Shown here: piece by piece, positions 549 to 57,509 of the stretch | Layout: each line of letters starts with the position of its first letter | Numbering within the stretch: position 1 is the first letter of the stretch | Source of the DNA: Acidimicrobiia bacterium | GTDB lineage: Bacteria; Actinomycetota; Acidimicrobiia; IMCC26256; JAMXLJ01 | NCBI GenBank assembly: GCA_036558745.1 | Contig: DATBEZ010000006.1 | Coordinates: 5,526 to 69,525 of the forward strand | DNA: 64,000 nt | Direction: 5' to 3' | Program-made: the position numbers and the translations under genes | The notes under the pieces: model-generated | What the model saw: the letters and a program-made list of their open reading frames with translations, nothing else | The model's database searches: none | What the model was told of the DNA's origin: nothing

Positions 549-571
549 TGCGACCTCCCGGACCGGCGAAT

Positions 572-586
572 CTAACAGCCCGTCAG
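572..586. promoter_or_regulatory. degenerate member of the CTGACG-N3-CGTCAG palindrome family (CTAACAgccCGTCAG)
   Basis: Right arm is perfect and the left arm has 2 mismatches. It lies 24-38 nt upstream of the ACAD start at 548, the same spacing as the sites at 34963 and 57355. Confidence 0.3.
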
Positions 587-20818: not shown

Positions 20819-20832
20819 TGAAACGTGTTCTA
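20819..20832. promoter_or_regulatory. perfect KstR-type operator TGAAACGTGTTCTA (TnnAACnnGTTnnA)
   Basis: Read directly. It is centred in the 107-bp divergent region between SDR 20007..20771(-) and LLM 20879..21985(+), about 47 nt from each start codon. Confidence 0.6.
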
Positions 20833-24689: not shown

Positions 24690-25214
24690 TCAGGCCGCGC
24701 CCGAGCGCTGCGCGAGCCGCTCGAGCGCGCGGCGACGCGAACGGCGCCGACGCGCGCGGCGGCGCGGCCCGCGCGTGCCGTACGCGGCCGCGGCCGCGAT
24801 CAGCGCGGCACCCGCGGCCCCGAGCGCCCACGTCGCGTCGTCTCCGCTCCCGCCGCCCGCTCCTCCCGTCGATCCCGCACCCCCGGACGCGCGGCCCGAC
24901 GGGCCGGCGGCCGCGCGACCGGGCGGGGACGACGGCCCGCGCGCGGGCCCGGTGGTCGCCGACCCGACCGGTCCCGCCGCGGGACCGCTCGCGCCCGTGA
25001 CCGCGGCCGACGTCGTGCCCGTGGCCCGTGACGACGCGACCCGCCCGCCCTGCGGGGCCGCGAGCGCGGTCACGACGGTCGGCTGCGGGGAGCCGTCGGG
25101 ATAGATCGCCCGTCGCGTGATCAGCGTGCACCCCGACGCGCTCGACGTCGCCAACACGCAGCACAGCAGCGCCACCCGCCGCCAGAACCGCCGGACCGTT
25201 GGAGCCCCGTGCAT
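24690..25214 (-). CDS. putative lipoprotein with Gly/Ala/Ser/Pro-rich region, C-terminal TM helix and poly-Arg tail
   Basis: Signal peptide plus lipobox (RRVALLCCVLATSSASGC). C-terminus WALGAAGAALIAAAAAY followed by RGPRRRARRRRSRRR. Confidence 0.5.
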   Translation of the reverse strand: MHGAPTVRRFWRRVALLCCVLATSSASGCTLITRRAIYPDGSPQPTVVTALAAPQGGRVASSRATGTTSAAVTGASGPAAGPVGSATTGPARGPSSPPGRAAAGPSGRASGGAGSTGGAGGGSGDDATWALGAAGAALIAAAAAYGTRGPRRRARRRRSRRRALERLAQRSGAA

Positions 25215-31382: not shown

Positions 31383-32561
31383 TCAGCGCGGTGCGCGGGG
31401 CAGGCCGAGGCCGGCCATGCCGATGATCTCTCGCTGCACCTCGTTCACGCCGCCGCCGAAGGTCCCGACCGGCGCATGCCGGTACGCGGCCTCGAGCTCG
31501 CCTCGCAGCACGGCACCCGGTGTGTCGCGCTTGAGGTAACCGGCGCTGCCGAGCACCTCGAGCAGCAAGCGGCACGCCTCCACCCGCAGCTCGGTCCCGA
31601 ACACCTTCATCGCGGACGCATCGGCCGGATTGAGCGCGCCCGTCGCGAGGCTGGTCGCGACGCGCCAGTTCGCGAGCTTCAGCACCTCGACCTTCGCGTG
31701 CACGCGAGCCAGCGTGAGCCGAACCCATTCCTGGTCGATGACGCGCGTTCCGTCGACCAGACGGGTGTCCTGGGCCCACCGGCGGACCTCCTGCAGATGA
31801 CGGTCGGTCTGGCCCGCTGGTGCGAGCGCCACCCGCTCGTGATTGAGCTGGGTCGTGATCATCTTCCAGCCCTCGTTCTCGTTGCCGACGAGGTTCGACG
31901 CCGGCACACGCACGTCCTCGTAGTAGGTCGCGTTGGTGTGACCACCGCCGAGCAACCAGATGGGCGAGTGCTTGAAGCCAACCAGTGACGTCGGGACGAG
32001 CAGGATCGAGATGCCCTTGTGCTTCGGGGCGTCCGGGTCGGTGCGGCACGCGAGCCAGATCCAGTCCGCATCGTGCGCGCCGGTCGTGAACACCTTGTTG
32101 CCGTTCACCACGTACTCGTCGCCGTCGCGCACCGCACGTGTCCGCAGCGACGCGAGGTCGGTTCCCGCTCCGGGCTCGCTGTAGCCGATGGCGAAGTGCA
32201 GCTCACCGGCGAGGATACGAGGGAGGAAGTAGGCCCTCTGCTCGTCGTTGCCGAAGCGCATGAGCGTCGGGCCGACCGTGTTGAGCGTGACCAGCGGGAT
32301 CGGCGCACCGGCGCGCTGCGCCTCGTCGAAGAAGATGTACTGCTCGAGCGGGGAACGGCCTTGACCGCCGTACTCCGTCGGCCAGCCGACGCCGAGCCAG
32401 CCGTCGACACCCATCTGCCGCACGACGTCGCGGTACGCGGGTCCCGCGGCCTCGGCACCCGAACCGAGGCGGGCCCGCCGCTCTGGAGTCATGAGCCCTT
32501 CGAAGTATCCGCGCAGCTCCTGCTGCAGCGCGCGTTGCTCGGCCGACAGCTCCAGCTCCAT
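31383..32561 (-). CDS. acyl-CoA dehydrogenase (third gene of an ACAD triplet)
   Basis: 392 aa with GWLGVGWPTEYGGQGRSPLEQYIFFDE, AIGYSEPGAGTDLASLRTRAVRDGDEYVVNGNKVFTT and FGGGVNEVQREII. Confidence 0.9.
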   Translation of the reverse strand: MELELSAEQRALQQELRGYFEGLMTPERRARLGSGAEAAGPAYRDVVRQMGVDGWLGVGWPTEYGGQGRSPLEQYIFFDEAQRAGAPIPLVTLNTVGPTLMRFGNDEQRAYFLPRILAGELHFAIGYSEPGAGTDLASLRTRAVRDGDEYVVNGNKVFTTGAHDADWIWLACRTDPDAPKHKGISILLVPTSLVGFKHSPIWLLGGGHTNATYYEDVRVPASNLVGNENEGWKMITTQLNHERVALAPAGQTDRHLQEVRRWAQDTRLVDGTRVIDQEWVRLTLARVHAKVEVLKLANWRVATSLATGALNPADASAMKVFGTELRVEACRLLLEVLGSAGYLKRDTPGAVLRGELEAAYRHAPVGTFGGGVNEVQREIIGMAGLGLPRAPR

Positions 32562-32624
32562 CGCGGCACGCTACGTCGACCGCTTCTCGCGCGGCAACAT
32601 TCGGGCGCGGGCGCGTCGGCGTCG

Positions 32625-33590
32625 CTACAACGCGGCCGCGAGCGCCTCGGAGTGCTCCTCGACCGAGCCCAACACGGTGTCGAGCCACCAGGCACGCTTC
32701 AGGTAGAGGTGCGCGTCGACCTCCCACGTGAAGCCCATGCCTCCGTGCACCTGGATCGCGGCCTTGCCGTTGCGCACCGCGGCGTCGCCCGCGGTCACCT
32801 TCGCCGCGTGGACCGCGCGCTCGGGATCGCCGACCGTCGGATCATCGAGGGTGACACCTGCGGCGTAGACGGCCGCGCGCGCGACCTCGGCCCGGACGAG
32901 CATGTCCGCACAGAGGTGCTTCACGGCCTGGAACGAGCCGATCGGCCGGTCGAACTGCTGACGTTCCTTCGCGTAGGCAACCGCGACGTCGGTCGTCGCC
33001 TCCGCGATCCCGAGCAGGAGCGCGGCCGCGAGCGCGGCGCCCTCCGTGCGCCAGCGCATCACGACGTCCACACCCGCGACCGCGTCACCGTCGGGCAGCG
33101 TGCCCTTGACGCGGTGGAGCGGTGTCAACGGATCGAGCGGCCGGTCGACGGGCGACGCCTCGACCGACGACGGGTCGACGGCGCGGATCCCGCGCTCGCC
33201 GACCACCAGGAGAACATCCAACGTGTCGCGGTTCTCGATCAGAAGCGGGGTCCGGCGCTCGTCGACCACGCCGGCCACCCGTGACCCGTCGGCGGCGCCG
33301 TCGACCAGACCGGCCGCCAGATGGGTCCCGATCAGCGGACCGGGCACGAGCGCGCGCCCGAGCTCCTCGAAGACCAGCACCGCCGCGGCCATCCCGAGCC
33401 CCACACCACCATCGGCTTCGGGAAGACGCAGCGCGAACACGCCGGCGTCGGCGAGGTCCCGCCAGCCGTCACGGTCGAGCCCACCGGTGGCTTCGGTCGC
33501 GCGCACGCGCTCCATGGGGAACCGGCCCGCGCACAGGCTCCGCACACCGTCCTGCAGCGCCACCTCGTCGTCGGAGAGCTCGAAATCCAT
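32625..33590 (-). CDS. acyl-CoA dehydrogenase-fold protein, short beta-subunit-like form
   Basis: MDFELSDDEVALQDGVRSL...ERQQFDRPIGSFQAVKHLCADM...HGGMGFTWEVDAHLYLKRA. About 320 aa, resembling the N-terminal half of the fusion at 59307... An alternative in-frame GTG start is at 33608. Confidence 0.8.
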   Translation of the reverse strand: MDFELSDDEVALQDGVRSLCAGRFPMERVRATEATGGLDRDGWRDLADAGVFALRLPEADGGVGLGMAAAVLVFEELGRALVPGPLIGTHLAAGLVDGAADGSRVAGVVDERRTPLLIENRDTLDVLLVVGERGIRAVDPSSVEASPVDRPLDPLTPLHRVKGTLPDGDAVAGVDVVMRWRTEGAALAAALLLGIAEATTDVAVAYAKERQQFDRPIGSFQAVKHLCADMLVRAEVARAAVYAAGVTLDDPTVGDPERAVHAAKVTAGDAAVRNGKAAIQVHGGMGFTWEVDAHLYLKRAWWLDTVLGSVEEHSEALAAAL

Positions 33591-33690
33591 GTCTTTTCGC
33601 TCGCTCACTTCCTGCAGGGCTCCGGTGTTCGCCCTGCTTCACAGTGTCGTTCGCTCGCTTACGAGCGCCTCCGCTCGTCCCTCGCTCCGG
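33588..33690 (-). repeat. copy 3 of the start-codon-abutting repeat
   Basis: The reverse complement reads GGAGCGAGGGACGAGCGGAGGCGCTCGTAAGCGAGCGAACGACACTGTGAAGCAGGGCGAACACCGGAGCCCTGCAGGAAGTGAGCGAGCGAAAAGACATG. Confidence 0.85.
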
Positions 33691-33711
33691 CGCCGCACGT
33701 CGTATCGCTGA

Positions 33712-33754
33712 GTTGGGACGCTGATGGGTCTCTCACGCCGGTGAGCGTCCCAAC
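33712..33754. repeat. conserved-stem hairpin GTTGGGACGCT-N21-AGCGTCCCAAC (possible terminator / REP-like)
   Basis: Read directly. It lies 17 nt downstream of the stop of ACAD 33771..34940(-). Confidence 0.7.
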
Positions 33755-33770
33755 CGAGCGGGGTTGGGGG

Positions 33771-34940
33771 CTAGCGGTCCTTGGGGAGGCCGAGGACGCG
33801 CTCGCCGACGATGTTGCGCTGGATCTGCGACGTGCCTGCGGCGATCGTCAACGACAGCGCGTGGATCTGGCCGTAGACGAGCGCGCCGTTCGCGATCCCG
33901 TCGATGTCGGCGATCGACAGGCCCGCCCGCTCCAGCACCCGCATCGACAGCTCACCGAGACGTTGACGCACCTCCGAGTAGTGCAGCTTGAACACGGAGC
34001 CGCCGACCCCCGGCACGCCCGTGCGCGCGGCCTGCGACACGTTGCGCTTCGTCAGCGCCCACAACGCGTCGAGGTCGGCCGCGAGATGACCGAGCTCACG
34101 CCGGACGCCCACGTCGTCGCGGCCCGTCTCGGTCGCGAACTTCGCGAGAGCACGCAGCAGCTCCATCGACTGGAGCATCTCGCTGACAAACGCGGTGCCG
34201 CGCTCGAAGCTGAAGGTGACCATCGCGACGCGCCAGCCGTCGTTCTCGGCACCGACCCGGTTCGCAACGGGGATGCGCACGTCGTCGAGGAAGAGCTCCG
34301 CGAACTCGGTGCTCCCGTGGATCGTCCGCAACGGGCGCACCTCGATGCCCGGTGTGTCCATCGGCATGATGAGCCACGTGATCCCGCGGTGCTTCGGCGC
34401 GTCGGGATCGGTGCGCACGAGCAGCTCGCAGAAGTCGGCCACCTCGGCGTGCGACGTCCAGATCTTCTGGCCGCTGACGACGTAGTCGTCGCCGTCGCGC
34501 ACCGCACGCGTGCGCAGTGACGCGAGGTCGGAGCCCGCGCCGGGCTCGGAGAAGCCCTGGCACCACACCTCGTCACCCCGCAGGATCGCGGGCAGGTGCC
34601 GGGCGCGCTGCTCGTCGCTCGCCTCGGCGATCAGCGTCGGGCCCGCGTGCAGGAGCCCGACGAAGTTGGCCCCGACGTAGGGCGCGTGGAGGCGCTCGGT
34701 CTCCTCCAGGAAGATGAGATGCTGGGCGGGTGACGCGCCGCGGCCGCCGTACTCGACGGGCCAGTTGATCCCCGCGTAGCCGGCGTCGAACAGCATTCGC
34801 TGCCACGCGGTGTCGTAGCTCCGGCGCGCGGGCCAGTCGTTGCGGTCCGGCTCGGGCGGCAGCGTGGGCAGGACGTCGTCGAGCCAGGCCCTGAGCTCGG
34901 CGCGGAAGCGCTCCTCGTCCTCCGTGTAGCGCAGGTCCAC
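33771..34940 (-). CDS. acyl-CoA dehydrogenase (first gene of the triplet)
   Basis: 389 aa with YAGINWPVEYGGRGASPAQHLIFLEE, CQGFSEPGAGSDLASLRTRAVRDGDDYVVSGQKIWTS and AAGTSQIQRNIVGERVLGLP. Confidence 0.9.
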   Translation of the reverse strand: MDLRYTEDEERFRAELRAWLDDVLPTLPPEPDRNDWPARRSYDTAWQRMLFDAGYAGINWPVEYGGRGASPAQHLIFLEETERLHAPYVGANFVGLLHAGPTLIAEASDEQRARHLPAILRGDEVWCQGFSEPGAGSDLASLRTRAVRDGDDYVVSGQKIWTSHAEVADFCELLVRTDPDAPKHRGITWLIMPMDTPGIEVRPLRTIHGSTEFAELFLDDVRIPVANRVGAENDGWRVAMVTFSFERGTAFVSEMLQSMELLRALAKFATETGRDDVGVRRELGHLAADLDALWALTKRNVSQAARTGVPGVGGSVFKLHYSEVRQRLGELSMRVLERAGLSIADIDGIANGALVYGQIHALSLTIAAGTSQIQRNIVGERVLGLPKDR

Positions 34941-34962
34941 GCCGGGGCAGTGTACGAGTGCG

Positions 34963-34977
34963 CTGACGGCGTGTCAG
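34963..34977. promoter_or_regulatory. palindrome CTGACGgcgTGTCAG (CTGACG-N3-CGTCAG family, 1 mismatch)
   Basis: 23-37 nt upstream of the GTG start of ACAD 33771..34940(-). Confidence 0.45.
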
Positions 34978-35045
34978 ATTCGGAATCCGCCCGTCCGTCA
35001 CGCGCGGCCCGTGGGCCTGCACGCACGCGATCGCGCGGCACTACC

Positions 35046-35061
35046 CTGACGTGCACGTCAG
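35046..35061. promoter_or_regulatory. perfect 16-bp palindrome CTGACGTGCACGTCAG
   Basis: 14-29 nt upstream of ATG 35075. The 18-mer CCTGACGTGCACGTCA recurs at 39545..39561. Confidence 0.55.
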
Positions 35062-36813: not shown

Positions 36814-36906
36814 GGAGCCTGCGGAGGTGCTTGCCAGCGAACGAGCGACACGGGCGACGGCAGGCCGACACCGGAGCCGTGCAGCGAGTGAGTGAGCGAA
36901 TCGACA
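36814..36906 (+). repeat. copy 4 (5'-truncated) of the start-codon-abutting repeat
   Basis: GGAGCCTGCGGAGGTGCTTGCCAGCGAACGAGCGACACGGGCGACGGCAGGCCGACACCGGAGCCGTGCAGCGAGTGAGTGAGCGAATCGACATC. Confidence 0.8.
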
Positions 36907-39546: not shown

Positions 39547-39562
39547 CTGACGTGCACGTCAA
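39547..39562. promoter_or_regulatory. palindrome CTGACGTGCACGTCAa (14-bp perfect core TGACGTGCACGTCA)
   Basis: In the 242-bp divergent region between VOC (start 39473) and thiolase (start 39716). Confidence 0.55.
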
Positions 39563-45512: not shown

Positions 45513-46310
45513 CTACAAGCCCGTCATCGGGTAGGGGAACTTCGCGCCGACACCGCCGTCGACGACGAGGGTCTGGCCGGTGACGTACGCGGCGAGATCC
45601 GACGCGAGGAACAGGATCGCGGAGGCGATGTCTGCGGGGAGCGCGACCCGGCGCAGCGGCGCATTCTCGGTGTTCCGTGACCGTCCCTCGTCGCCGAGAT
45701 ACGCGGACACGCGCGGCGTCCACACCACACCGGGCGCGACGGCGTTGACCCGGATGCCCAGCGGACCGAGCTCGACCGCCCCGGAGCGCACGAGGGCCAT
45801 GAGCCCGGCCTTCGCCGCGCCGTAGGCGGCGTGGCGCGGCGCCGACGTGATGCCCGACACCGACGCGACGAACACCATTGCGCCACCGTCGCCGCGCATG
45901 ACGCGGCCGCCGAGCTGCATCGCGAGGTACGCGTGCCGCAGGACGATGTCGAAGTGCCAGTTCCAGTCGTCGTCGCTCACGTCGAGCAGGTCCGCGTAGC
46001 GGGCCATGCCGATGATGTCGACGAGGCCGTCGACCCGGCCGAACGCCGCCTGCGCGCTCCCGAACATGCTCTCGGCGTCGTCACGCTTGGTCGCGTCGCC
46101 CGACCACGCAATTCCGTCGACCTCCTTGGCGACATCGTCGGCGAGGTCGGCGTCGAGGTCGACGCAGAACGTCCTCGCTCCGGCGGACGCGAGCGCGTGC
46201 GTGGCCTGGCGGCCGATGCCCTGCCCGGCGCCGATCACCACGAAGTTGCGGCCGTCGAGGCGCAGCTTGCCCGGATAGTCGGGCACCTCGGTGTCGTCGG
46301 AACGTGTCAT
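45513..46310 (-). CDS. SDR family oxidoreductase
   Basis: FVVIGAGQGIGRQ, YGAAKAGL, PGVVWTP. Confidence 0.85.
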   Translation of the reverse strand: MTRSDDTEVPDYPGKLRLDGRNFVVIGAGQGIGRQATHALASAGARTFCVDLDADLADDVAKEVDGIAWSGDATKRDDAESMFGSAQAAFGRVDGLVDIIGMARYADLLDVSDDDWNWHFDIVLRHAYLAMQLGGRVMRGDGGAMVFVASVSGITSAPRHAAYGAAKAGLMALVRSGAVELGPLGIRVNAVAPGVVWTPRVSAYLGDEGRSRNTENAPLRRVALPADIASAILFLASDLAAYVTGQTLVVDGGVGAKFPYPMTGL

Positions 46311-46325
46311 CGCTTCCTCCCGCGC

Positions 46326-47252
46326 CTACTTCACCGCGACGGGTTGCACGGGTGCGCCCACCGCGTTGGTGAACGGCAGGGGTGACGCGTCGAGGAAGCA
46401 GGTGTAACGACCGTCGTCGGCGCAGTCGGCCGCCAGGGCTTCGAAGTTCCAGTTCTGGCCCTGCGTCATCCCCATGTCGACCAGGTGCAGGAGGTGCACC
46501 GGAAGGAGCGCGTCGTCGCGCTCGCACGGGAACACCTCGAACGTGACGTTGTCGGTCGCGACCGCGGCGACGTCGTGGTCACGGAACCACTGCACGGTCT
46601 GCAGCGACGGACCCGGCGCGGGCGCGCCGTACCCCATCTTGTCGCCGGCGAGGAACAGCTGGATCTGACCGGTGCGGAGCAGGATCACGTCGCCGGGTCG
46701 GACCTCCATGTCGCCGAGCGCGGCCGCGGCGTCGAGATCGTCGGCAGTGATCGCGTAGCCGCCGTCGAGCCGCTCCACACCCTTGGCGCGGGGAACGTCG
46801 AGCAGCACACCGCGCGACACGAGCGTTGTGATGTTGTGGATCCCGAGCTGCAGCGCACCGAGCTCGGTGATGGTCGACGCCGGGACACCGTTGTAGAGGT
46901 TGCCCTCGTAACTGACGTGGCCGAGCCCGTCCCAGTGCGTGCACGCTTGGATGCCCATGTGCACGGTGTCGTCGCTCGTGCAGAAGTCCGACGGGTCGCC
47001 GGTCATCGACGCGTTGATGGCGAGCATCGTGCGCAGCGGATTGGTACGTCCCGGGATGATCCCCGTCTGGGGTCCGTTCTGGTCGAGCGGGATGCCGAGC
47101 CCGAACCGCTTGCCGGTCTGCACGTTCGCCGCCGCCTCGCGCACGACGTCGTCGGTGATCAGGTTGACCGTGCCGATCCGGTCGTCGCCGCCCCAGCGAC
47201 CCCAGTTGCGGACCTTCGCCGCCAGCTCCTTCACTTCGTCAGGCAGAGCCAC
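46326..47252 (-). CDS. cyclase-family protein (PF04199)
   Basis: NWGRWGGDDRIGTVNLIT...THWDGLGH...GDVILLRTGQ. Paralog of 23256..24167. Confidence 0.8.
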   Translation of the reverse strand: MALPDEVKELAAKVRNWGRWGGDDRIGTVNLITDDVVREAAANVQTGKRFGLGIPLDQNGPQTGIIPGRTNPLRTMLAINASMTGDPSDFCTSDDTVHMGIQACTHWDGLGHVSYEGNLYNGVPASTITELGALQLGIHNITTLVSRGVLLDVPRAKGVERLDGGYAITADDLDAAAALGDMEVRPGDVILLRTGQIQLFLAGDKMGYGAPAPGPSLQTVQWFRDHDVAAVATDNVTFEVFPCERDDALLPVHLLHLVDMGMTQGQNWNFEALAADCADDGRYTCFLDASPLPFTNAVGAPVQPVAVK

Positions 47253-47362
47253 GGTTCAGCCTCCCGCGGTCGAGCTGTCAGTCCGCCGTGCCGCTGCGGT
47301 CGATCGCGTCCCCCGGCGTGCGAGCTGTTGGCAGGTGAGCGGCGAGCTCGCGAGCGCGACCA

Positions 47363-48469
47363 TCAAATCGTGAGCACGCCGCGTGCGAGCTTGCCGTCGT
47401 GCAGGTCGTGCACCGCGCGCTCCCAGTCCTCGATCGGGTACTTCGCGGTGACGAGCTCGTCGAGCTTGAAGGTCCCCTTGCGGTACATGTCGATGATGAG
47501 GGCGACGTCGTGGTGGGGCCTGTGCGACCCGGCGCGACAGCCCATGACGCCCCGCTCGACGTGGGTCATGTGCGTGACCCGCGCGGTGAACTCGGCCGTC
47601 GGTGCGGGCACGCCGACGATCACGACGTTGCCGCCCCAGTCGAGCATGTCGAGGCCCTGACGGATCGTCGCCGGTGCGCCGACGCAGTCGAACACCCAGT
47701 CGGTGCCGCCGGCCTCGAACGGCCCGGTGACCGCTTCGTCGCTGAACGGCAGCAGCGTGCGCACCTCGGCGACGGTGTCGACTCCGGGACCGGCGAGGAC
47801 GAAGTCGGTCGCGCCGAACTCGCGCGCCCACTGCTCCTTCTCGGGGAGCGTGTCGACCGCGATGATCCGGCTCGCACCGGCGATCTTCGCGGCCTGGATC
47901 GAGTTCAGACCCACACCGCCGACCCCGAACACGACCGCGGTCTGTCCCCGTTGCAGGTCGGCGCGGTTCCACACCGCGCCGGCGCCCGTGAGCACGCCGC
48001 AGCCGACGAGCGCGGCCGACTCGAGCGGCACGTCGTCGGGGATCTTCACGCACTGCTTGCCCTCGACCACGCTGTACTCGGTGAAGAACGACGCGGCCGC
48101 GAAGTTCCACGCGGGCTCGCCGTCGAGGGTGAACGGCTGGGTTCGGTTGCCCATGCTCGAACGGCAGTACGCGGGCCGGCCGGTGATGCAGAACCGGCAC
48201 ACACCGCAGTAGGCCAGCGTGTGCAGCACGACGTGGTCGCCCGGCTTCACGTTCGTCACCGCGTCGCCGACCTCGGCGACGATGCCCGCGCCCTCGTGGC
48301 CGAGCACCGACGGCGCGGGCCACGGGATCGTCCCGTCGATGACGCTGAGGTCGCTGTGACACAGCCCGGCCGCCACGATCTGGACCTTGACCTCGGTCGG
48401 GCCGGGCGCGCGAACCTCGATGCCCTCGAGCAGCTCCGCCTTCTCCCCCGTGTAGACGAGGCCCTTCAT
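47363..48469 (-). CDS. zinc-dependent alcohol dehydrogenase (MDR, class III-like)
   Basis: [24 protein letters not shown], structural-zinc cluster [15 protein letters not shown] and GVGGVG. Confidence 0.9.
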
Positions 48470-48524
48470 CGCTTCCCCCTATGTGCCGCCGATCGCGCTG
48501 GCAAGCTCGCCGCTCCCGGCGTGC

Positions 48525-50000
48525 TCAGGCCGGCCAGATGATGCTCTGCAGCTCCGTGTACGCGTGCATGCCGAAGTCGCCGCCGTCGCGACCGATGCCG
48601 CTCATCTTGAACCCGCCGAACGGCGCCTCGTGATGGCGTTGGGCGGTGTTGACGCCGACGTGTCCGCAGCGAAGCTCCTTGGCGACCCGGAACGCCCTGG
48701 TGGTGTCGGACGAGTACACGTAGTCGTAGAGACCGAAGTCGCTGTCATTGGCGATCGCGATGCCTTCCTCCTCGGTGTCGAAGGGCACCGCGACGATCAC
48801 CGGTCCGAAGATCTCCTCGCGCACCGACGTCATCTCGTTGTGGCAGCCGGCGATGAGCGTCGGGCCGACGTAGTAGCCCTTGTCGACGCCGGAGGGGTTC
48901 GTCCCGTCGACGACGAGCTCGCCGCCCTCCTCCTTGCCGAGGTTGATGTAGTGCTCGACGCGCGAACGGTGCGCACCGGTGATGAGCGGTCCGACCACCG
49001 TGTCGGCCCGCATCGGGTCGCCGACCTTCAGCGACGGCGCCGCGGCGGCGAGCGCCTCGACCAGCTGGTCGTAGATACCGCGCTGCACGACCGCGCGCGT
49101 CGGCGCGGTGCAGATCTGACCGGAGTGGAAGCCCCACACGCTCACGAGCGCGGTGACGGCGGCCTTGATGTCGGCGTCGTCGAAGACGACGCACGCACCC
49201 TTTCCGCCGAGCTCCATGAGGAGACGCTTCATCGTCCTCGCGCCGGCCTCGTAGATCTTCACACCGACCGCGGTGCTGCCGGTGAACGAGATCATGTCGA
49301 TGTCGCGCGCGTCGACCATCGCGGCACCGACCTCCGGACGGGACCCCGTCACGACGTTGACGACACCCTTCGGGAAGCCGACCTCCTCGCACAGCGCGGC
49401 GAACTCGATGATCGTCAGGGGATCCTGCGGCGCGGGCTTCATCACGATGGTGTTGCCCGTCGCGAGCGCAGGCGCGACCTTCCCCGCCATGTTGACGAGC
49501 GGGAAGTTGTAGGACGTGATGCACCCGACGACGCCGACGGGCTGGCGGTACGCGGCCGCGTTCATGAGCGCGCCGGGCGCGAGCGGTGTCGCGGGCATGA
49601 CCGACGGTTGGAACGCGATGTCGATGTTGGTGACCGCACCCTTGGCGTAGCGCTCGAAGCGCGCCGCGGCCTGGGGCACCTGGAGCTGCGACCCGACGGA
49701 GAGGGTCGCGCCCGTCTCCGCGATCACGAGCGGGAGGAGGTCCTGCATGCGCTCGCGCAGCTTGTCGGCCAGGGCCTGCAACAGCCGGGCCCGCTCCTCC
49801 GGTGGCGTGTGCGACCAGGCAGGGAACGCGGCCTTGGCCGCGGCGGCGGCCGCGCGCACGTCGTCCACCGACGCCTCGGGTGCCGGTGCGACGAGGGCCT
49901 CCGTGGCCGGGTTCACGATGTCGTAGGTGCCGGCCGAGCCGTCGACCCATTCCCCTCCGATGAGCAGCCGGTACTGCTTGTCGGTGAGCGTGGCGGACAT
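48525..50000 (-). CDS. NAD(P)-dependent aldehyde dehydrogenase
   Basis: Internal ATG 50000 follows GGAGG. MSATLTDKQYRLLIGGEWVD, FTGSTAVG, ELGGKGA and catalytic-Cys region HSGQICTAPTR. Confidence 0.9.
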   Translation of the reverse strand: MSATLTDKQYRLLIGGEWVDGSAGTYDIVNPATEALVAPAPEASVDDVRAAAAAAKAAFPAWSHTPPEERARLLQALADKLRERMQDLLPLVIAETGATLSVGSQLQVPQAAARFERYAKGAVTNIDIAFQPSVMPATPLAPGALMNAAAYRQPVGVVGCITSYNFPLVNMAGKVAPALATGNTIVMKPAPQDPLTIIEFAALCEEVGFPKGVVNVVTGSRPEVGAAMVDARDIDMISFTGSTAVGVKIYEAGARTMKRLLMELGGKGACVVFDDADIKAAVTALVSVWGFHSGQICTAPTRAVVQRGIYDQLVEALAAAAPSLKVGDPMRADTVVGPLITGAHRSRVEHYINLGKEEGGELVVDGTNPSGVDKGYYVGPTLIAGCHNEMTSVREEIFGPVIVAVPFDTEEEGIAIANDSDFGLYDYVYSSDTTRAFRVAKELRCGHVGVNTAQRHHEAPFGGFKMSGIGRDGGDFGMHAYTELQSIIWPA

Positions 50001-50109
50001 CGGCGTGCCTCCAGAGGCGGAATCTGATGGAGCGTCAGCGCACTGTAACGCGTTGCACTCTCGGCGGACCCGGCGGCATCGCGCCCCCGCACGGCGGTCG
50101 CCGCGACCG

Positions 50110-50450: not shown

Positions 50451-52004
50451 CTATGAGCCGTTCGGCCCATCCGTTCCGACCAGGCGTCGACGCACGTCGT
50501 CACGCAGGTCGCCCTTCGCGATCTTTCCGCCCGACGAGCGCGGCAGCTCGTCCACGACGACCAGGTACTCCGGCCACGACTCCTTCCCCACGCCGCGCGC
50601 GGCCAGGTGCTCGCGCAGCTCGTCGAGGGTCGGCGCTGCAACGCCGGCGTGCACCTCGACGTAGACGCAGACCCGTTCGCCGAACACGTCGTCGGGTGCG
50701 GCGACCGCGGCCGCGATCGCGATCGACGGGTAGGACGCGACCTCGTCCTCGACGACCGCGGCGCTGATGTTCTTACCGCCGCGGATGATGAAGTCGGACG
50801 CGCGTCCCGCGACCATGAGGTAGCCGTCGTCGTCGATCGTGCACACGTCGCCGGTGAGCATCCACCCGTCAGCGGTGGAGAGCGCTGCGTTCGCCTCGTC
50901 GTCGTCCAAATAGCCGTAGCAGGTCGCCGGTCCACGACAGCCGGCGACGCCCGGACCTCCGGACGCCGTCAGGTCAGAACCGTCGTCGCCGAAGAGACGG
51001 ACGTGCATCTCCGGGATGATGCGCCCCGCGGTGCGGAGGCGGCGGTCCCGCGAATCGTCCACGGTCGTCGCGCTGAGCGCGCCCGTCTCGTTCGACCCGT
51101 AGAACTGCAGCACCGCGCAGCCGGTGCGGTTTTCGAACTCGGCTGCTCGCTCGTAAGGAACCATCTCGCCGCCCGTGAACATCACCCGCAGCGACGACGT
51201 GTCGGTCGTCGCGAAGGCGGGCGTGTTGAGCAGCATGACGAACTGCGTCGAGACGCACGCGATCACCGACACCCGCTCGCGCTCGATCAGGTCCAGGCAT
51301 CCTTCCGGCGTGAACCGGCTCATGAGCACGCACGGACTGCCCAGCAGCGTGGGCGTGAAGTGCGCGGTCCAGAGCCCGAAGCCGAACGGGGCCGGGATCA
51401 CGCTCATGAACACGTCGTCGGGACCGAGGCGACCGTTCGTAACCGCGAGGCGGTGGAAGAAGCACCAGCGTGCCTGGGCGTGCACGACGACCTTGGGCAG
51501 GCCGGTCGTGCCCGACGTCGAGTTCACGAGGAAGACGTCGGTCGCGCCGACCGGCTCGCGATCCGGCGCCTTACCCGGCGGCGCCGCGTCGAGGTCGACG
51601 ACGGGGATACCGAGGCGCGCGGCCACGTCGCCACGCTGCGGCGTGGTCACCAACGCGACCGCGTGGGCCTTCCTGAGGACGTGCTCGGCTTCGCGGTCGC
51701 CGGCACGCGGACCGATGCCCACCACGACGAGTCCCGCCTTCTCGAGCGCGACGAACACCACGTGCACGAGCGGACCGTCGGGCAGGAGCACGCCCACGCG
51801 TGACCCGGGCGCGAACCGCGCGAACAGGCCGGCCAACGCGTCGGACCGGGCGTTGTAGTCGGCCCACGTCAGGCGCCCGTCTCCCTCGACGAACGCGGTT
51901 GCGTCGGGCCGCTCGCGCGCGTGGCGGGCGACGGTCGCCGCGATCGTCGTGTCGTCCCAGTACCCCGCGGCGCGGAACTCCGCGGCCAGCGCGTCGAAGG
52001 GCAC
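50451..52004 (-). CDS. acyl-CoA synthetase / AMP-dependent ligase
   Basis: NSTSGTTGLPKVVVH, YGSNETG, GDVCTIDDDGYLMVAGR and IRGGKNISAAVVE...SSGGKIAK. Confidence 0.85.
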   Translation of the reverse strand: MPFDALAAEFRAAGYWDDTTIAATVARHARERPDATAFVEGDGRLTWADYNARSDALAGLFARFAPGSRVGVLLPDGPLVHVVFVALEKAGLVVVGIGPRAGDREAEHVLRKAHAVALVTTPQRGDVAARLGIPVVDLDAAPPGKAPDREPVGATDVFLVNSTSGTTGLPKVVVHAQARWCFFHRLAVTNGRLGPDDVFMSVIPAPFGFGLWTAHFTPTLLGSPCVLMSRFTPEGCLDLIERERVSVIACVSTQFVMLLNTPAFATTDTSSLRVMFTGGEMVPYERAAEFENRTGCAVLQFYGSNETGALSATTVDDSRDRRLRTAGRIIPEMHVRLFGDDGSDLTASGGPGVAGCRGPATCYGYLDDDEANAALSTADGWMLTGDVCTIDDDGYLMVAGRASDFIIRGGKNISAAVVEDEVASYPSIAIAAAVAAPDDVFGERVCVYVEVHAGVAAPTLDELREHLAARGVGKESWPEYLVVVDELPRSSGGKIAKGDLRDDVRRRLVGTDGPNGS

Positions 52005-52007
52005 CGG

Positions 52008-53261
52008 CTAGGGCATCCGGAGCTGGTCGGGCACCGGATGACGGAACAGGCGCGCCGCGTTCTCCCAGCAGATGGCGCGCACCTCGTCGGCGGGGAAGCC
52101 GCGCATGTGCGCGTGCAGCTGGGCCTGGGTGTCGGGCCAGCTCGAGTCCGCGTGGGGATAGTCCGACTCCACCAAGATGTTCTCGACGCCGATGCGGTGA
52201 CGGGTCTGCAGGCCCGACTCGTCGTCGATCGCACAGAACCAGAAGTTGCGCTGCAGCACCTCGGCCGGCGAGAGGTCGACGTCGCGCCACGTCGGCAGGT
52301 AGCCGAGCTGATAGCGGTAGCAGTGGTCGAGCCGGTCGAGGAGACCCGCGACCCAGCCCACCCCGCCCTCCGACAAGCAGATGCGCAGGTCGGGGAAGCG
52401 CACCGCGACCTTCGAGTAGAGCCAGTCGACCGCGGCGTACATCGCGTACGCGAAGAACAGCACCGCGACCGTGTCGGGCGGCGCGTCGTCGGCCGTCGCG
52501 GGCGACGAGCCCGACGACCCGACGTGCAGGCACACGACGGTTCCCGTCTCCGCGCACGCGGCGAGGAACGGGTCCCAGTAGCCGGTGTGCAGCGAGGGCA
52601 GGTCGAGCTTGTCCGGCGCCTCCGAGAACGTGACCGCGGTGAACCCGCGCTCCGCGTTGCGGCGTATCTCGTCGGCCGCGACGACCGGGTCGCGCAGGTA
52701 CGGGATCTGGTTCGCGATGAACCGGTCGGGATGCGCGCCCGCCCACGCCTCGAGGTGCCAGTCGTTGTACGCGCGCATGGCCGCGAGCGCGAGCTCGTCG
52801 TCACCCGGCCACATCGTCAGACGTTGCCCGACGAACCCGGGAAGGAACGACGGGAAGCACAACGACGCGTACACGCCGTTGACGTCCATGTCGTGCACGC
52901 GCGCGTCGACGTCCCAGGCACCGCGGCGCATCTCGTCGAAGCGTGTGGGCTCGAAGCCGTACTCGCTCGACGGCCGGCCCGCGACCGCGTTGAAGCCCAC
53001 GTTGGGCAGCACCTCGCCCTGCCAGACCCACGCCTCGCCACCGTCGTCGGTCTCGATGACGCGCGGTGCGTCGTCGGCGAAACGTCGCGGAAAGCGTCCC
53101 TCGAACGCGTCCGGCGGCTCGACCACGTGGTCGTCCACGCTGATGATCGTGGCGAACCGCTCACGGGGCTCGGGCTCGGGCAGGAACGTGACCTGGCCAC
53201 GCCGGGCCTTCGAGCCGCCGAACGCCTCGGAGCGCTGCAGGTCGTCGATCGACATGCTCAT
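52008..53261 (-). CDS. amidohydrolase_2 family (ACMSD/LigW-type metal-dependent hydrolase/decarboxylase)
   Basis: IISVDDHVVEPPDAFEGRFP...VNGVYASLCFPSF...CLHVGSS...ESDYPHADSSWP. Paralog of 56119..57333. Confidence 0.85.
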   Translation of the reverse strand: MSMSIDDLQRSEAFGGSKARRGQVTFLPEPEPRERFATIISVDDHVVEPPDAFEGRFPRRFADDAPRVIETDDGGEAWVWQGEVLPNVGFNAVAGRPSSEYGFEPTRFDEMRRGAWDVDARVHDMDVNGVYASLCFPSFLPGFVGQRLTMWPGDDELALAAMRAYNDWHLEAWAGAHPDRFIANQIPYLRDPVVAADEIRRNAERGFTAVTFSEAPDKLDLPSLHTGYWDPFLAACAETGTVVCLHVGSSGSSPATADDAPPDTVAVLFFAYAMYAAVDWLYSKVAVRFPDLRICLSEGGVGWVAGLLDRLDHCYRYQLGYLPTWRDVDLSPAEVLQRNFWFCAIDDESGLQTRHRIGVENILVESDYPHADSSWPDTQAQLHAHMRGFPADEVRAICWENAARLFRHPVPDQLRMP

Positions 53262-53268
53262 GACAGCC

Positions 53269-54081
53269 TCATTGCAACACCTCGGGCTCGTCCCGCAGCA
53301 GCTGGCGGACCGCGCCCTCCCAGTGGACGCGGGGTGCGTTCCGCTTCAACAACGCCTTCATCTCGGCTCGTGCCGGCGCCGGGATCTCGACCGGCTCCCG
53401 GCCCGCGCGCAGCACGTCGTACGTCATACGGCACATGCGCTCGAACGTGACCGCCTTGTACGTCGCCTCCTGGATCGTGGGGGCCGTGACGATCACACCG
53501 TGACTCACGAGCAGCACACCGCTCGCGCTGCCGACGCGCTCGGCCAGACGCGCGCCGGAGCTCGCGTCGTCGATCGAGCCGTCGTACTCGTCGACCACAC
53601 CGAGCTCACCGTCGAAGATGCACGCGTTCTGGTGCACCAGCCGCGGCGCCTCGCCCATCGCCGCGAGCAACGTCGCGTAGTAGGGGTGGTTGTGGATCAC
53701 GACGCGCGCGTCCGGACGGACGCGGTGCAGCTCGGTGTGGAGGAAGACCGCGGGCGTGACGTCCCATTGGCCCGCCACGACGTGACCATCGGGGTCGACG
53801 GCGACGATGTCGGACGCCTGCACCTCCTCCCACCACTTCCCCCAGGGGTTGGCCCACAGGTTCGGGGTGACGTCGTCGGCCCAGGTGATGTGGCCGGCGA
53901 TGTGCTCGCCGAACCCGGTCCCCGCCAGGATGCGCAGCGCGCACGCGAGCTCCTGCTGCAGCGTGAGCTCGACGCCGATCCCCGGCCCCGGCAGCGGCCG
54001 CTCGGTGTCCTCTGGTCGCTCCCGCTCCCGCTCTGAGGGCTTCGCCCGGCGGAGCTCCGCTCCCGCTCCCGTCGTCGTCAT
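53269..54081 (-). CDS. class II aldolase/adducin-family protein
   Basis: Internal ATG 54081. GHITWADDV...DIVAVDPDGHVV...VVIHNHPYYATLLA...LVSHGVIVTAPTIQEA. Confidence 0.8.
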   Translation of the reverse strand: MTTTGAGAELRRAKPSERERERPEDTERPLPGPGIGVELTLQQELACALRILAGTGFGEHIAGHITWADDVTPNLWANPWGKWWEEVQASDIVAVDPDGHVVAGQWDVTPAVFLHTELHRVRPDARVVIHNHPYYATLLAAMGEAPRLVHQNACIFDGELGVVDEYDGSIDDASSGARLAERVGSASGVLLVSHGVIVTAPTIQEATYKAVTFERMCRMTYDVLRAGREPVEIPAPARAEMKALLKRNAPRVHWEGAVRQLLRDEPEVLQ

Positions 54082-54097
54082 CGCCCCACCCCACGCT

Positions 54098-54145
54098 GCG
54101 TTGGGACATGAACGGCACTCATACGCTGCATTGTTGTCCCAACGC
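54098..54145. repeat. conserved-stem hairpin GCGTTGGGACA-N26-TGTCCCAACGC
   Basis: Read directly. It lies between the ECH stop (54167) and the aldolase start (54081). Confidence 0.7.
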
Positions 54146-54166
54146 GCCGGTGGCGGTACCTGGTGT

Positions 54167-54991
54167 TCACCGCAGCTGCCACTCGACCCGCTTGCCGGAC
54201 GCGAACGCCTCCTGGCCCGCCTTGAGCCCTTCGGTCGTCGTGCCCATGGCGACGAACGCGTACGCCATCTCGAGCGCGGCCTTGTGCCCGGCATCGCGCG
54301 CGGTCCAGAGCGAGCGCATCGTCGCCTGCACCGCGAGGGGCGGGTACGACGCGATGGTCTCCGCGACCCAACGCGCATGCTCGGCCAACCGCTCCGCGGG
54401 CACCACCTCGGTGACGAGACCGATCTCCTTCGCACGTGCCGCCGACAACCGCTCGGCGTTGCCCATGAGCGAGAGGCGCATGATGTCGCCGAAGGGCATC
54501 TTGTGCAGCATGTGGACGGGCTCGAAGCCGGCGGGCATGCCGTAGCTCACGTGCGGGTCGAAGAAGGTCGCGTGCTCCGCCGCGATCAGGAACTCGCACT
54601 CGCCGAGCATGTAGAACGCGCCGCCGCACGCCATGCCGTTCACGGCCGCGATCACCGGCTTCCACAGATCGCACGTCTTCGGACCGATCTTCTGACCCGG
54701 GTCGTCCAGCATGAACGGGCTCGAGTAGGCCGCCGACTGACCGCCGGCCTCCAGGTCGTCGCGCCAGTCGGTATCGATGTCGGAGCGGTCGATGCCGGTG
54801 CAGAACGCCTTCTCGCCGGCCGCGGTGAGGACGACCGCGTTGACGTCCTGGTTCGCCCGCAACGAGCGCCATACGTCGTAGAGCTCGTCGGTCATCTTCG
54901 TGTTGAACGCGTTGTACACCTGTGGTCGGTTCAGCGTGACCCAGGCGACGCCGTTCTCCTCGCGGTAGTCGAGCGTCTCGTAGTCGGGCAT
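54167..54991 (-). CDS. enoyl-CoA hydratase/isomerase (crotonase) family
   Basis: Internal ATG 54991. GVAWVTLNRPQVYNAFN...VVLTAAGEKAFCTGID...KPVIAAVNGMACGGAF. Confidence 0.85.
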   Translation of the reverse strand: MPDYETLDYREENGVAWVTLNRPQVYNAFNTKMTDELYDVWRSLRANQDVNAVVLTAAGEKAFCTGIDRSDIDTDWRDDLEAGGQSAAYSSPFMLDDPGQKIGPKTCDLWKPVIAAVNGMACGGAFYMLGECEFLIAAEHATFFDPHVSYGMPAGFEPVHMLHKMPFGDIMRLSLMGNAERLSAARAKEIGLVTEVVPAERLAEHARWVAETIASYPPLAVQATMRSLWTARDAGHKAALEMAYAFVAMGTTTEGLKAGQEAFASGKRVEWQLR

Positions 54992-55023: not shown

Positions 55024-55038
55024 CTGACGCGCCGTCAG
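55024..55038. promoter_or_regulatory. perfect palindrome CTGACGcgcCGTCAG
   Basis: In the 88-bp divergent region between ECH (start 54991) and esterase (start 55080). Confidence 0.5.
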
Positions 55039-55079
55039 GTGCGGCGATACTGTGCGGCGCACCGCCGAGGGAGGTCAAC

Positions 55080-56118: not shown

Positions 56119-57333
56119 CTACGCGTACTCGGGGAGTTCCAGGCCGAGCATCTTGATCGCGTTGCCGCGCATGATCTTGAGGATCACGTCGTCGTCGAGA
56201 CCCTTCGTCTGGGCTTCGGCGATCTCGCGGGTGCGGGGCCACGTCGAGTCGGAGTGCGGGTAGTCGCTCTCGTAGGTGACGTTCTCGACGCCGATCTCCT
56301 CGATGGAGCGCAGGCCGTGCGCGTCGTCGAAGAAGCAGCCGTACACGTGGTCGCGGAAGAGCTGGCTCGGCGGCTCGAGGACCTTGTCGGCCACGCCACC
56401 CCACGCGCGGTTCTCCTGCCACACCACGTCGGCCCGCTCGAGGACGTAGGGGATCCAGCCGATCTGGCCCTCGGAGTACGCGATCTTGAGGTCGGGGAAC
56501 CGGTTGAACGCGCCGCACATCAGCCAGTCGACGAGCGAGTAGCACGCGTTCGCGAACGTGAGCGTGGACCCCACGGCCGGTGGCGCGTCGGCCGACGTCG
56601 AGGGCATCTTCGACGACGAGCCGATGTGCATGCAGACGACGGTGTTCGTCTCCGCGCACGCTCGGAAGAGCGGGTCCCAGTAGTTGCTCGTGTCGTGGAT
56701 CGACGGCAGGCCCAGGAACGGCGGGATCTCGCTGAAGCACGTCGCCCGCACGCCGCGCGCCGCGTTGCGACGCACCTCCGCCGCCGCGAGCTCCGCGTCC
56801 CAGAGCGGGATGATGATGAGCGGGATGAGACGGCCACCCGACTCACCGCACCACTCGTCCACCATCCAGTCGTTGTAGGCCTCGACACAGAGCTTCGCGA
56901 GGTCCTTGTCGCTCGCCTCGAGGAACGTCTGACCGCAGAAGCGCGGGAACGTCGGGAAGCAGAGCGACGCCTCGATCCAGTTCGTGTCCATGTCCTCGAG
57001 GCGCGGCGCGACCTGGTACGAGCCGGGACGCATCCACTCGTACGTCGTGCCTTCGACCGTGATGTCGTCGCGGTCGTGGCCGACGGCCGCGTCGAGACGC
57101 ATGAGCGGCCGGCGGAGGTCCTCGTAGAACCACCAGTCGACGGGAGCGCCCTTGTCGCCGGGCTCGCCCGGCACGACCGTGAGCTTGCCGCCGATGAAGG
57201 TCATCTCCTTCACCGGTGCGCGCAGCACGCGCGGACCGACGTCGCGGTACTTCGCCGGGAGCCGGCTCTGCCACACCTCGGGCGGCTCCACCACGTGGTC
57301 GTCGACGGAGATGATCTTCGGGAACTCACGCAT
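56119..57333 (-). CDS. amidohydrolase_2 family protein
   Basis: IISVDDHVVEPPEVWQSRLP...NWIEASLCFPTF...CMHIGSS...ESDYPHSDSTWP. Confidence 0.85.
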   Translation of the reverse strand: MREFPKIISVDDHVVEPPEVWQSRLPAKYRDVGPRVLRAPVKEMTFIGGKLTVVPGEPGDKGAPVDWWFYEDLRRPLMRLDAAVGHDRDDITVEGTTYEWMRPGSYQVAPRLEDMDTNWIEASLCFPTFPRFCGQTFLEASDKDLAKLCVEAYNDWMVDEWCGESGGRLIPLIIIPLWDAELAAAEVRRNAARGVRATCFSEIPPFLGLPSIHDTSNYWDPLFRACAETNTVVCMHIGSSSKMPSTSADAPPAVGSTLTFANACYSLVDWLMCGAFNRFPDLKIAYSEGQIGWIPYVLERADVVWQENRAWGGVADKVLEPPSQLFRDHVYGCFFDDAHGLRSIEEIGVENVTYESDYPHSDSTWPRTREIAEAQTKGLDDDVILKIMRGNAIKMLGLELPEYA

Positions 57334-57354
57334 GGGGGCAGCCTACCCCCGGAT

Positions 57355-57407: not shown

Positions 57408-57509
57408 GGAGCGAGGGACGAGCGAGTGCGCTCGCCAGCGAGCGAACGACGCGGGCAGCCCAGGGCCAAGGCCGGTGCCCTGCCGCGAGGGAGTGAGCGA
57501 GAAGACATG
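57408..57509 (+). repeat. copy 2 of the start-codon-abutting repeat
   Basis: GGAGCGAGGGACGAGCGAGTGCGCTCGCCAGCGAGCGAACGACGCGGGCAGCCCAGGGCCAAGGCCGGTGCCCTGCCGCGAGGGAGTGAGCGAGAAGACATG. Confidence 0.85.

Follow-up and report, generated by a model that had tools for sequence, protein, structure and literature searches.

Seven short palindromes, each made of a CTGAC and a GTCAG arm five or six nucleotides apart, are found between genes in a 64,000-nucleotide stretch of DNA from an Acidimicrobiia bacterium (GenBank assembly GCA_036558745.1, contig DATBEZ010000006.1, positions 5,526 to 69,525; hereafter the window). The sites are real, conserved in related genomes, specific in their spacing and placed on promoters, and the KstR-type and IclR-type regulators encoded in the same window go with separate motifs. 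We consider it likely that the palindromes are the operators of a homodimeric repressor whose gene lies outside the window and not next to any of the sites examined; repression, a dimeric binder, an effector and the family of the regulator are what we infer from these features. A first-pass annotation of this DNA had proposed that the palindromes are the operator of a separate regulon on the same catabolic island. This is supported by their bias toward intergenic regions, their conservation and the lack of a match to the operators of KstR and KstR2.

Palindromic sites in the window and in related loci

The first-pass annotation had listed six sites, and the sequence given for each is present at its coordinates; a seventh, at 50024, is added here. 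N5 and N6 denote the number of nucleotides (nt) between the CTGAC and GTCAG arms, and scores in bits are those of the position weight matrix described below.

572..586: putative degenerate N5 operator CTAACAGCCCGTCAG, 18.1 bits, 22 nt before the ATG at 549 of an acyl-CoA dehydrogenase (ACAD) gene
34963..34977: putative N5 operator CTGACGGCGTGTCAG, 20.3 bits
35046..35061: putative N6 operator CTGACGTGCACGTCAG, a perfect 16-bp palindrome that ends 13 nt before the amidohydrolase ATG at 35075
39547..39562: putative N6 operator CTGACGTGCACGTCAA, identical to the 35046 site at 15 of 16 positions
50024..50038: putative N5 operator CTGATGGAGCGTCAG, absent from the first-pass annotation, 16.7 bits, 23 nt before the aldehyde dehydrogenase ATG at 50000
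55024..55038: putative N5 operator CTGACGCGCCGTCAG, 19.3 bits
57355..57369: putative N5 operator CTGACGATCCGTCAG, 26.9 bits

All seven CTGAC-N5/6-GTCAG sites of the window are intergenic. The claim that every site is in a divergent intergenic region holds for six of them and fails for the added site at 50024, which lies between co-directional genes. The gap to the minus-strand start codon is 21-23 nt for the sites at 572, 34963, 50024 and 57355, and 32 nt for the site at 55024; for the site at 39547 the likely minus-strand start is the ATG at 39473, 73 nt away.

The G+C content of the window is 70.7%. The exact form CTGACG-N3/4-CGTCAG is found three times, against an expectation of 0.02, and none of 100 shuffled sequences reaches three. 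When up to two mismatches are allowed the counts are at chance level (11 with 11.5 expected and 9 with 10.5 expected), so the degenerate sites called for separate support. For this, a weight matrix was trained solely on unrelated Acidimicrobiia loci (sites in L001-L080; related loci are designated by L numbers) and then run on the window. It returned five matches of at least 16.7 bits, all of them intergenic, and the next best match, in coding sequence, scores 8.6 bits; 0.4 matches are expected at 14 bits or more in simulated sequence.

The nearest relatives of this DNA are uncultured Acidimicrobiia or unclassified Actinomycetota, and the best genome match of the amidohydrolase is 66% identical. 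We compared 80 loci around amidohydrolase orthologues and, as a control for spacing, counted CTGAC-Nx-GTCAG with x from 0 to 10 in a non-redundant 1.82 Mb of related loci. Intergenic sequence contains 35 copies of the N5 form and coding sequence one; for the N6 form the counts are 15 and zero, so that the two combined give 50 sites outside genes and one inside. All other spacings (N0-N4 and N7-N10) are at background, with at most two sites each, intergenic or coding. Similarly, 32 of the 33 exact CTGAC-N5-GTCAG copies in 1.56 Mb are outside genes, none of the 14 exact N6 sites found in other loci is inside a gene, and eight Acidimicrobiaceae loci hold 19 intergenic boxes and no coding one. The N5 form is dominant in the L038-L079 group and the N6 form in L016, L023 and L030-L037; the window holds both.

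The conserved core is CTGAC-N5/6-GTCAG, with less constraint on the sixth base of each arm. An oriented matrix of 52 sites reads C-T-G-A-C-G-g-n-c-C-G-T-C-A-G-A-T, with a weak A at position -2 that mirrors the T at +16. Of the 52 sites, 48 begin with C, and at position 6 there are 39 with G and 8 with A. The sequence recognized would be A-n-CTGAC(G)-N3/4-(C)GTCAG-n-T, with a 15-bp form (N5) and a 16-bp form (N6).

Across Acidimicrobiia genomes whose proteins are 50-90% identical, the box is kept at the promoters of Amidohydro_3, Amidohydro_2, aldehyde dehydrogenase and ACAD genes. It lies 38-83 nt upstream of Amidohydro_3 orthologues in at least 16 Acidimicrobiia loci, and its distance from the start codon of Amidohydro_2 orthologues is constant at 21-22 nt (L038, L052, L057, L062, L066, L078, and L085). 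Aldehyde dehydrogenase promoters in relatives carry TACACT-g-CTGACG, and the close relatives L084, L085, and L086 keep sites at the same promoters. In cultured Embleya and Mycobacterium branderi, clusters on plasmids or linear replicons contain homologous genes, and the box was not found in them; the Mycobacterium loci among the amidohydrolase-orthologue loci are also without it. A near-identical repeat, CTGTCCTCTCGTCAG (one mismatch to the core), is present in four loci, one from Mycobacterium (L019, 14477) and three from uncultured Actinomycetota (L007, 14531; L014, 13172; L018, 14566), in each case outside called genes. These repeats may be unrelated, or may lie inside an uncalled gene.

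Placement of the sites on core promoters

Three registers recur among the -10 elements tabulated for about 50 sites. In the first, a TAnnnT -10 ends 0-4 nt before the palindrome (TACACT-g, TACAGT-gcg) or shares its CT (TAAACT, TAAGCT, TACGCT, TAATCT, and TACCCT, the last at 35042-35047). This register is typical of aldehyde dehydrogenase and Amidohydro_3 promoters and puts the predicted transcription start inside the box. In the second, the gene-proximal arm is a -35-like hexamer, followed by a spacer of 17-18 nt and a TAnnnT -10, with the start codon often 6-8 nt further on; it is constant for Amidohydro_2 in seven loci and is found in the window at 57355, 34963 and 55024. In the third, palindrome and -10 are directly adjacent, an example being GTCAGATAGGGT (L081, 2300; L085, 1519). 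The following elements were assigned in the window.

34949..34954, minus strand: predicted -10 TACACT of the ACAD promoter, 8 nt before the GTG at 34940, with the arm CTGACA of the 34963 site as -35
35042..35047, plus strand: -10-like TACCCT of the amidohydrolase promoter, overlapping the first CT of the 35046 palindrome
50042..50047, minus strand: predicted -10 TACAGT, 3 nt upstream of the 50024 palindrome and overlapping a KstR-pattern match (50044-50057)
55048..55053, plus strand: predicted -10 TACTGT of the Abhydrolase_3 promoter, 18 nt after the left arm, which would act as -35
57340..57345, minus strand: predicted -10 TAGGCT of the Amidohydro_2 promoter, 18 nt from the -35 arm and 6 nt before the ATG at 57333

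A promoter scan independently reports CTGACA-17 nt-TACACT on the minus strand at 34977..34949. The register seen at 35042, with TAAACT, TAAGCT or TACGCT over the CT, recurs at orthologous promoters in more than 15 loci, and the TACAGT-gcg-CTGACG arrangement of the 50024 site is also found in L085. At the ACAD gene (34940), at Amidohydro_2 (57333), and at Amidohydro_2 in L038, L052, L057, L062, L066, L078, and L085, the -10 is 6-8 nt before the start and there is no Shine-Dalgarno sequence, which suggests that the ACAD (34940) and Amidohydro_2 (57333) transcripts may be leaderless or near-leaderless.

With this placement, a protein bound to the sites would stand in the way of RNA polymerase, which argues for repression. 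In the mechanism that we propose, a homodimeric repressor, encoded away from the sites, would bind the palindrome on the core promoter of a catabolic gene; the bound dimer would exclude RNA polymerase, and a pathway intermediate, plausibly an acyl-CoA, would release it.

The palindrome could instead be a promoter element, in which two back-to-back -35-like hexamers drive divergent transcription with no dedicated regulator. CTGACG does resemble TTGACA, the second-register arm is exactly 17-18 nt from a TAnnnT -10, and divergent genes flank six of the seven window sites. However, the palindrome is also found downstream of the -10 or abutting it, so it has no fixed promoter position, and many sites are flanked by a gene on one side only. 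The nearly invariant first C also departs from the T of the -35 consensus, and the strict N5/N6 spacing plays no part in sigma binding. Given that the position of the box relative to the -10 varies but always overlaps a core element, it is highly improbable that the box is the promoter element itself.

We give equally little weight to the idea that the box acts as RNA, i.e., as a stem-loop in the 5' untranslated region (6-bp stem, 3-4 nt loop) that stabilizes the mRNA or masks translation signals. Several sites are indeed 13-35 nt before start codons, beside the ribosome-binding site, and the palindrome would fold into a GC-rich hairpin. However, both arms are conserved as sequence and not as pairing: no compensatory change is seen in 21 distinct N5 sites, and the position-6/10 pair deviates nine times, always on one side, with six of the nine being non-pairing. 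Furthermore, the second register puts the element upstream of the -10 of a leaderless gene, where it is predicted to be untranscribed on that strand, and the predicted start of the first register falls within the left arm. Only two spacings are enriched, and an Rfam scan of the window gave no match. Invariant arms without compensation, the absence of an Rfam match and the promoter placement together make a transcribed hairpin unlikely.

Candidate regulators and known operators

If the palindromes are operators, the question is which protein binds them. The first-pass annotation had named an IclR and an XRE protein as the only other DNA-binding proteins of the window. This is incorrect, as the window also encodes a KstR-family TetR (11001-11588, minus strand, TetR_N and TetR_C_20 domains), which matches Mycobacterium tuberculosis KstR structures (E ~1e-31) and for which the best NCBIfam model is KstR, below the cut-off. 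The TetR gene follows a LytR_cpsA_psr gene at a distance of 18 nt and lacks a separate promoter region. The annotation was right that the motif matches neither the KstR nor the KstR2 consensus. None of the seven matches the KstR pattern TnnAACnnGTTnnA (TAGAACnnGTTCTA), and the KstR2 pattern AnCAAGnnCTTGnT has a single one-mismatch match in the window, inside a thiolase gene, which is chance level. Matches to the KstR pattern itself are found at 20819, 50044, and 54903, the last within coding sequence, and the KstR-type boxes of the window are as follows.

10947-10960: KstR-type box with two mismatches
20819-20832: KstR-type box
50044-50057: KstR-type box, pattern match

Canonical or near-canonical KstR boxes are found before the DUF35/thiolase operon (TAGAACACATTCCA) and between an SDR (short-chain dehydrogenase) gene and a luciferase-like gene (TGAAACGTGTTCTA). 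Another, TGTAACGCGTTGCA, stands beside the CTGAC box of the aldehyde dehydrogenase promoter, and of it only half is kept in the relative L085. The match at 54903-54916 (TTGAACGCGTTGTA) falls in the coding sequence of the enoyl-CoA hydratase (54167-54991). L003, L017, L025, and L033 contain this stretch too (TACAACGCGTTCGA), probably in homologous genes, and it is probably a conserved YNAF peptide motif and not an operator.

A KstR-family TetR, either the window protein or a 52-54% identical relative found in L038-type loci, might nevertheless bind the box (CTGACGGACCGTCAG) as a lineage-specific KstR operator. A canonical KstR box lies about 30-50 nt before the amidohydrolase orthologue, in place of the CTGAC box, in L035 (1488, TAGAACACGTTTCA) and L080 (9951, TAGAACGCGTTCTA). 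At least 16 other loci have the CTGAC box at this orthologous promoter, which suggests an exchange of regulators. The L038-type loci combine a KstR-like gene with 19 CTGAC boxes and no intergenic AACnnGTT box, and in L038 and L054 a box is found upstream of the KstR-like gene. However, this box is missing in five of the seven loci, and the DNA-reading residues of the L038-type protein match those of M. tuberculosis KstR; the helix-turn-helix is near-identical in M. tuberculosis KstR, the window TetR and the L038-type protein, with V, L or M at the equivalent of a base-contacting residue. Canonical TAGAACnnGTTCTA boxes flank the orthologues of the window protein (64-69% identity; L111, L113, L114, and L115), and in L114 and L115 they stand in front of the operon that holds the regulator gene itself. 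No exact CTGAC-core box is present in these four loci, only one-mismatch matches, including an intergenic CTGATGATGGGTCAG in L114 and L115, and the window contains both types of motif. The operator context of the orthologues and the identity of the helix-turn-helix to that of M. tuberculosis KstR led us to reject the window protein as the binder. The absence of an AACnnGTT box from every L038-type intergenic region leaves a small probability for a KstR-like paralogue.

The gene for the IclR protein (62655-63524) comes third in a conserved operon (luciferase-like monooxygenase, GDSL lipase, IclR, SDR, 108-aa protein, and ACAD). Its orthologues were examined in their context in 27 metagenome loci and four further contigs. 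One of the related loci, L081, has the IclR protein and two box contexts identical to those at the right end of the window and extends 10 kb further. Two tandem GTTyGC-N4-GCGAAC palindromes, typically about 4 nt apart, precede the ribosome-binding site of the operon in all 11 promoter-bearing loci, over 50-100% identity. In L081 they lie about 1.7 kb past window position 64000.

L081 7827-7842: GTTCGC-N4-GCGAAC box
L081 7847-7862: GTTCGC-N4-GCGAAC box

The tandem boxes are also present in L084, L085, L089, L091, L100, L102, L104, L116, L117, and L118. The pair is probably the autoregulatory operator of the window IclR, and the layout of paired palindromes is typical of IclR proteins and fits an IclR tetramer.

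That the IclR would be the cognate binder of the CTGAC boxes, and autoregulate through the one ahead of its operon, is slightly less probable still than binding by a KstR-like protein. It is the sole regulator encoded within the box-rich part of the island, and a perfect CTGACGTTCCGTCAG is found in the intergenic region before the luciferase-lipase-IclR operon (L081, 7756) and retained in L084, L085, and L086. However, this box is about 45 nt upstream of the -35 of the operon (TTGACG, L081 ~7795) and 35 nt from the start of a divergent Amidohydro_2 gene, and it is the tandem GTTyGC boxes that stand directly before the operon in all 11 orthologous loci. A CTGAC box is present there only above about 64-65% identity and is missing in L116-L119, and no IclR orthologue is encoded within 10 kb of the box-rich Acidimicrobiaceae loci. 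A two-mismatch TTGACACTCCGTCAG in L088, L089, and L091 coincides with the -35 of the operon itself. Given the conserved tandem boxes and the position of the CTGAC box on the side of the divergent gene, the IclR, which the first-pass annotation had put forward as a candidate binder, is best assigned to the GTTCGC-N4-GCGAAC boxes.

We found no cognate regulator in the window or beside any site in the related loci examined; the annotation had likewise noted no obvious one adjacent. In seven Acidimicrobiaceae loci the KstR-like gene (52-54% identical to that of the window) is divergent from a TetR_C_38 gene, about 5 kb from the amidohydrolase. TetR_C_38 was rejected as the binder: the box is beside its gene in two of the seven loci, it has a conserved CATGG-N4-CCATGGTACC of its own at its start in all seven, with TAGGGT as the -10 of the KstR-like gene, and there is no motif link. 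At L038 16880-16970 and the equivalent positions of L052, L054, L057, L062, L066, and L071, an invariant CATGG-N4-CCATGGTACCGA is accompanied by GAGTAGGGT, a -10 located 8-10 nt before the ATG of the KstR-like gene. TetR_C_38 is abundant and unusually conserved; its 120 best-scoring protein clusters are all at least 78% identical. The divergent neighbor of the amidohydrolase in L038-type loci is an MscS channel and was rejected as a regulator, and no DNA-binding domain is present in the other unannotated neighbors and window open reading frames (ORFs), which encode enzymes, lipoproteins or membrane proteins. The promoter of the HTH_31 protein (4822-5403) has no box. An iterative TetR_N profile, run over all predicted proteins of the loci collected by then, detected 33 TetRs, none with a CTGAC box upstream; other palindromes are found there instead.

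Several observations weigh against operators of a single unlinked repressor. The motif is linked to no protein, a conserved CTGAC box was found in the promoter of no regulator gene, and the CTGAC-like box between the TetR_C_38 and KstR-like genes is confined to two of seven loci (L038 and L054). The N5 and N6 forms occur in one genome, and even in one intergenic region, which is unusual for a single rigid dimer. Every promoter and transcription-start assignment is predicted from consensus sequences, and the sites at 572 and 39547 have no recognizable -10 in any of the three registers. Finally, the heuristic gene calls overestimate the non-coding fraction (25%), but the enrichment far exceeds any such error.

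In the literature we found no actinobacterial regulator with this motif, and only the operators of two Thermus thermophilus TetR proteins, PfmR and SbtR, resemble it. The PfmR (TTHB023) consensus is CTGACCGATCGGTCAG, that is CTGAC-N6-GTCAG, and the SbtR (TTHA0167) sequence is TGACYrnnyRGTCA; the sites of both overlap core promoters of fatty-acid metabolism genes (PMC7022988). PfmR needs a C at position 6, where a C-to-G change raises the dissociation constant from 2 to 279 nM, lowering affinity about 100-fold (PMC7022988); G is the base most often found there in the present sites. The outer half-sites and spacing of the PfmR operator are the same as those of the N6 sites at 35046 and 39547, and in both systems the sites overlap core promoter elements and face fatty-acid or acyl-CoA genes. 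However, the inner positions are CCGATCGG for PfmR, whereas here position 6 is G or A and the center of the window N6 sites is GTGCAC; the 15-bp N5 form that is dominant here is not described for PfmR or SbtR; and no PfmR-like gene was found in the window or beside any site. The hosts are unrelated (Deinococcota versus Actinomycetota). By analogy, TetR dimers can read such palindromes, and kinship of the factor to PfmR would not follow from this.

The operators of KstR and KstR2 (Mycobacterium and Rhodococcus; TnnAACnnGTTnnA and AnCAAGnnCTTGnT) are likewise short palindromes before lipid or steroid catabolic genes, and are found on the same island, but they have TAGAAC or ACAAG half-sites in place of CTGACG and differ in spacing too. 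The operator of Escherichia coli RutR, a TetR protein of pyrimidine catabolism, is the 16-bp palindrome TTGACCAnnTGGTCAA with a TGAC-N6-GTCA core; its first and inner bases differ from those of the boxes here, and the window has no homologue. In CRP/FNR-type sites the TGA and TCA cores are exactly 6 bp apart (TGTGA-N6-TCACA, TTGAT-N4-ATCAA). This type was rejected, as 7 or 8 bp separate the two cores in the present sites and the N4 spacing, which corresponds to 6, is at background (two intergenic and two coding). The BkaR operator was also rejected, as the consensus of this mycobacterial TetR, GTTA-N-T-N4-A-N-TAAC (PMC3920632), bears no resemblance to the sites.

As the closest characterized operators are those of PfmR and SbtR, TetR is our best guess for the family of the repressor, with about an even chance of being right; MarR, GntR or another family is somewhat less probable. 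The possibility that two paralogues serve the two spacings, which overlaps both of these estimates, has a lower probability again, of about one in four.

Genes facing the sites and extent of the predicted regulon

Genes were called from codon-position G+C (GC3 heuristic) and named from Pfam, NCBIfam and the annotated metagenome contig L081. The sites face the following genes and putative operons.

1-549, minus strand: ACAD gene facing the 572 site
31383..34940, minus strand: predicted target operon of three ACAD genes (33771-34940, 32625-33608, and 31383-32561; Pfam), 34963 site
35075-36802 and 36879-37994, plus strand: predicted target operon of Amidohydro_3 and then an adenylate-cyclase-like gene (Pfam), 35046 site
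Flanks of the 39547 site: glyoxalase-fold dioxygenase (minus strand) and thiolase (plus strand)
45513..50000, minus strand: probable target operon of aldehyde dehydrogenase, Zn-dependent alcohol dehydrogenase, cyclase, and SDR (Pfam), 50024 site
50451..54991, minus strand: possible target operon of enoyl-CoA hydratase (54167-54991), class II aldolase, Amidohydro_2, and AMP-dependent ligase, 55024 site
55080-56015, plus strand: Abhydrolase_3 (esterase), other flank of the 55024 site
56119..57333, minus strand: predicted target gene Amidohydro_2 (404 aa), 57355 site
57507-58262, plus strand: SDR, with a luciferase-like monooxygenase, other flank of the 57355 site

Co-transcription of 45513..50000 is suggested by the co-directional, tightly spaced genes, and the 55024 site may serve the gene on either strand. 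In L038-type loci, orthologues of the three ACADs of 31383..34940 are found downstream of a box-controlled Amidohydro_2 gene. The extension of L081 beyond the window adds two sites, the CTGACGTTCCGTCAG already mentioned, before a second Amidohydro_2 gene, and CTGACGGGCAGTCAG, before an ACAD pair. Going by the sites, the predicted regulon of the window plus the 10 kb that follow it comprises no fewer than nine promoters and some 25 genes, including ACADs, three Amidohydro_2, Amidohydro_3, aldehyde dehydrogenase, hydratase and aldolase, esterase, SDRs, and luciferase-like monooxygenases. The KstR regulon, which occupies the left part of the window, and the operon of the IclR are separate from it.

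It is possible, though we regard it as doubtful, that this is a third master regulon of lipid or steroid-like catabolism, not recognized before, a functional analogue of KstR and KstR2, widespread in uncultured soil Acidimicrobiia, with one or more unlinked repressors, and that it has displaced KstR in some lineages. Such a regulon would be governed by one repressor that tolerates two half-site spacings, or by a pair of paralogues that share a half-site, and would control an uncharacterized pathway with many Amidohydro_2 and Amidohydro_3 enzymes and many luciferase-like monooxygenases. The feature itself is of an ordinary kind, an operator and a new regulon of familiar type, and leaves the general concepts of bacterial regulation unchanged.

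Acidimicrobiia are abundant in soil, largely uncultured and without a genetic model, and we know of no transcriptional regulon defined in this lineage so far. The motif provides a sequence handle on a large set of their catabolic genes. In complete metagenome-assembled genomes, the weight matrix allows the regulon to be listed and the regulator to be searched for through autoregulation and phylogenetic profiling. The co-regulated amidohydrolases, ACAD pairs, luciferase-like oxygenases and aldehyde dehydrogenase would together outline one pathway. Three regulators (KstR, IclR, and the CTGAC-box factor) are layered on one island, and the KstR box and the CTGAC box replace one another at one orthologous promoter across lineages.

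The adenylate-cyclase-like gene (36879-37994, plus strand) combines the regulatory domain of an adenylate cyclase with a class III cyclase catalytic domain. It begins 76 nt past the amidohydrolase and is apparently in the same box-controlled operon, and a link between cyclic AMP and the CTGAC-box regulon is possible. The whole window is without tRNA genes. In a 704-nt gap of the gene calls, a low-complexity ORF (24690-25214, minus strand) has a lipoprotein-type signal (…LATSSASGC…).

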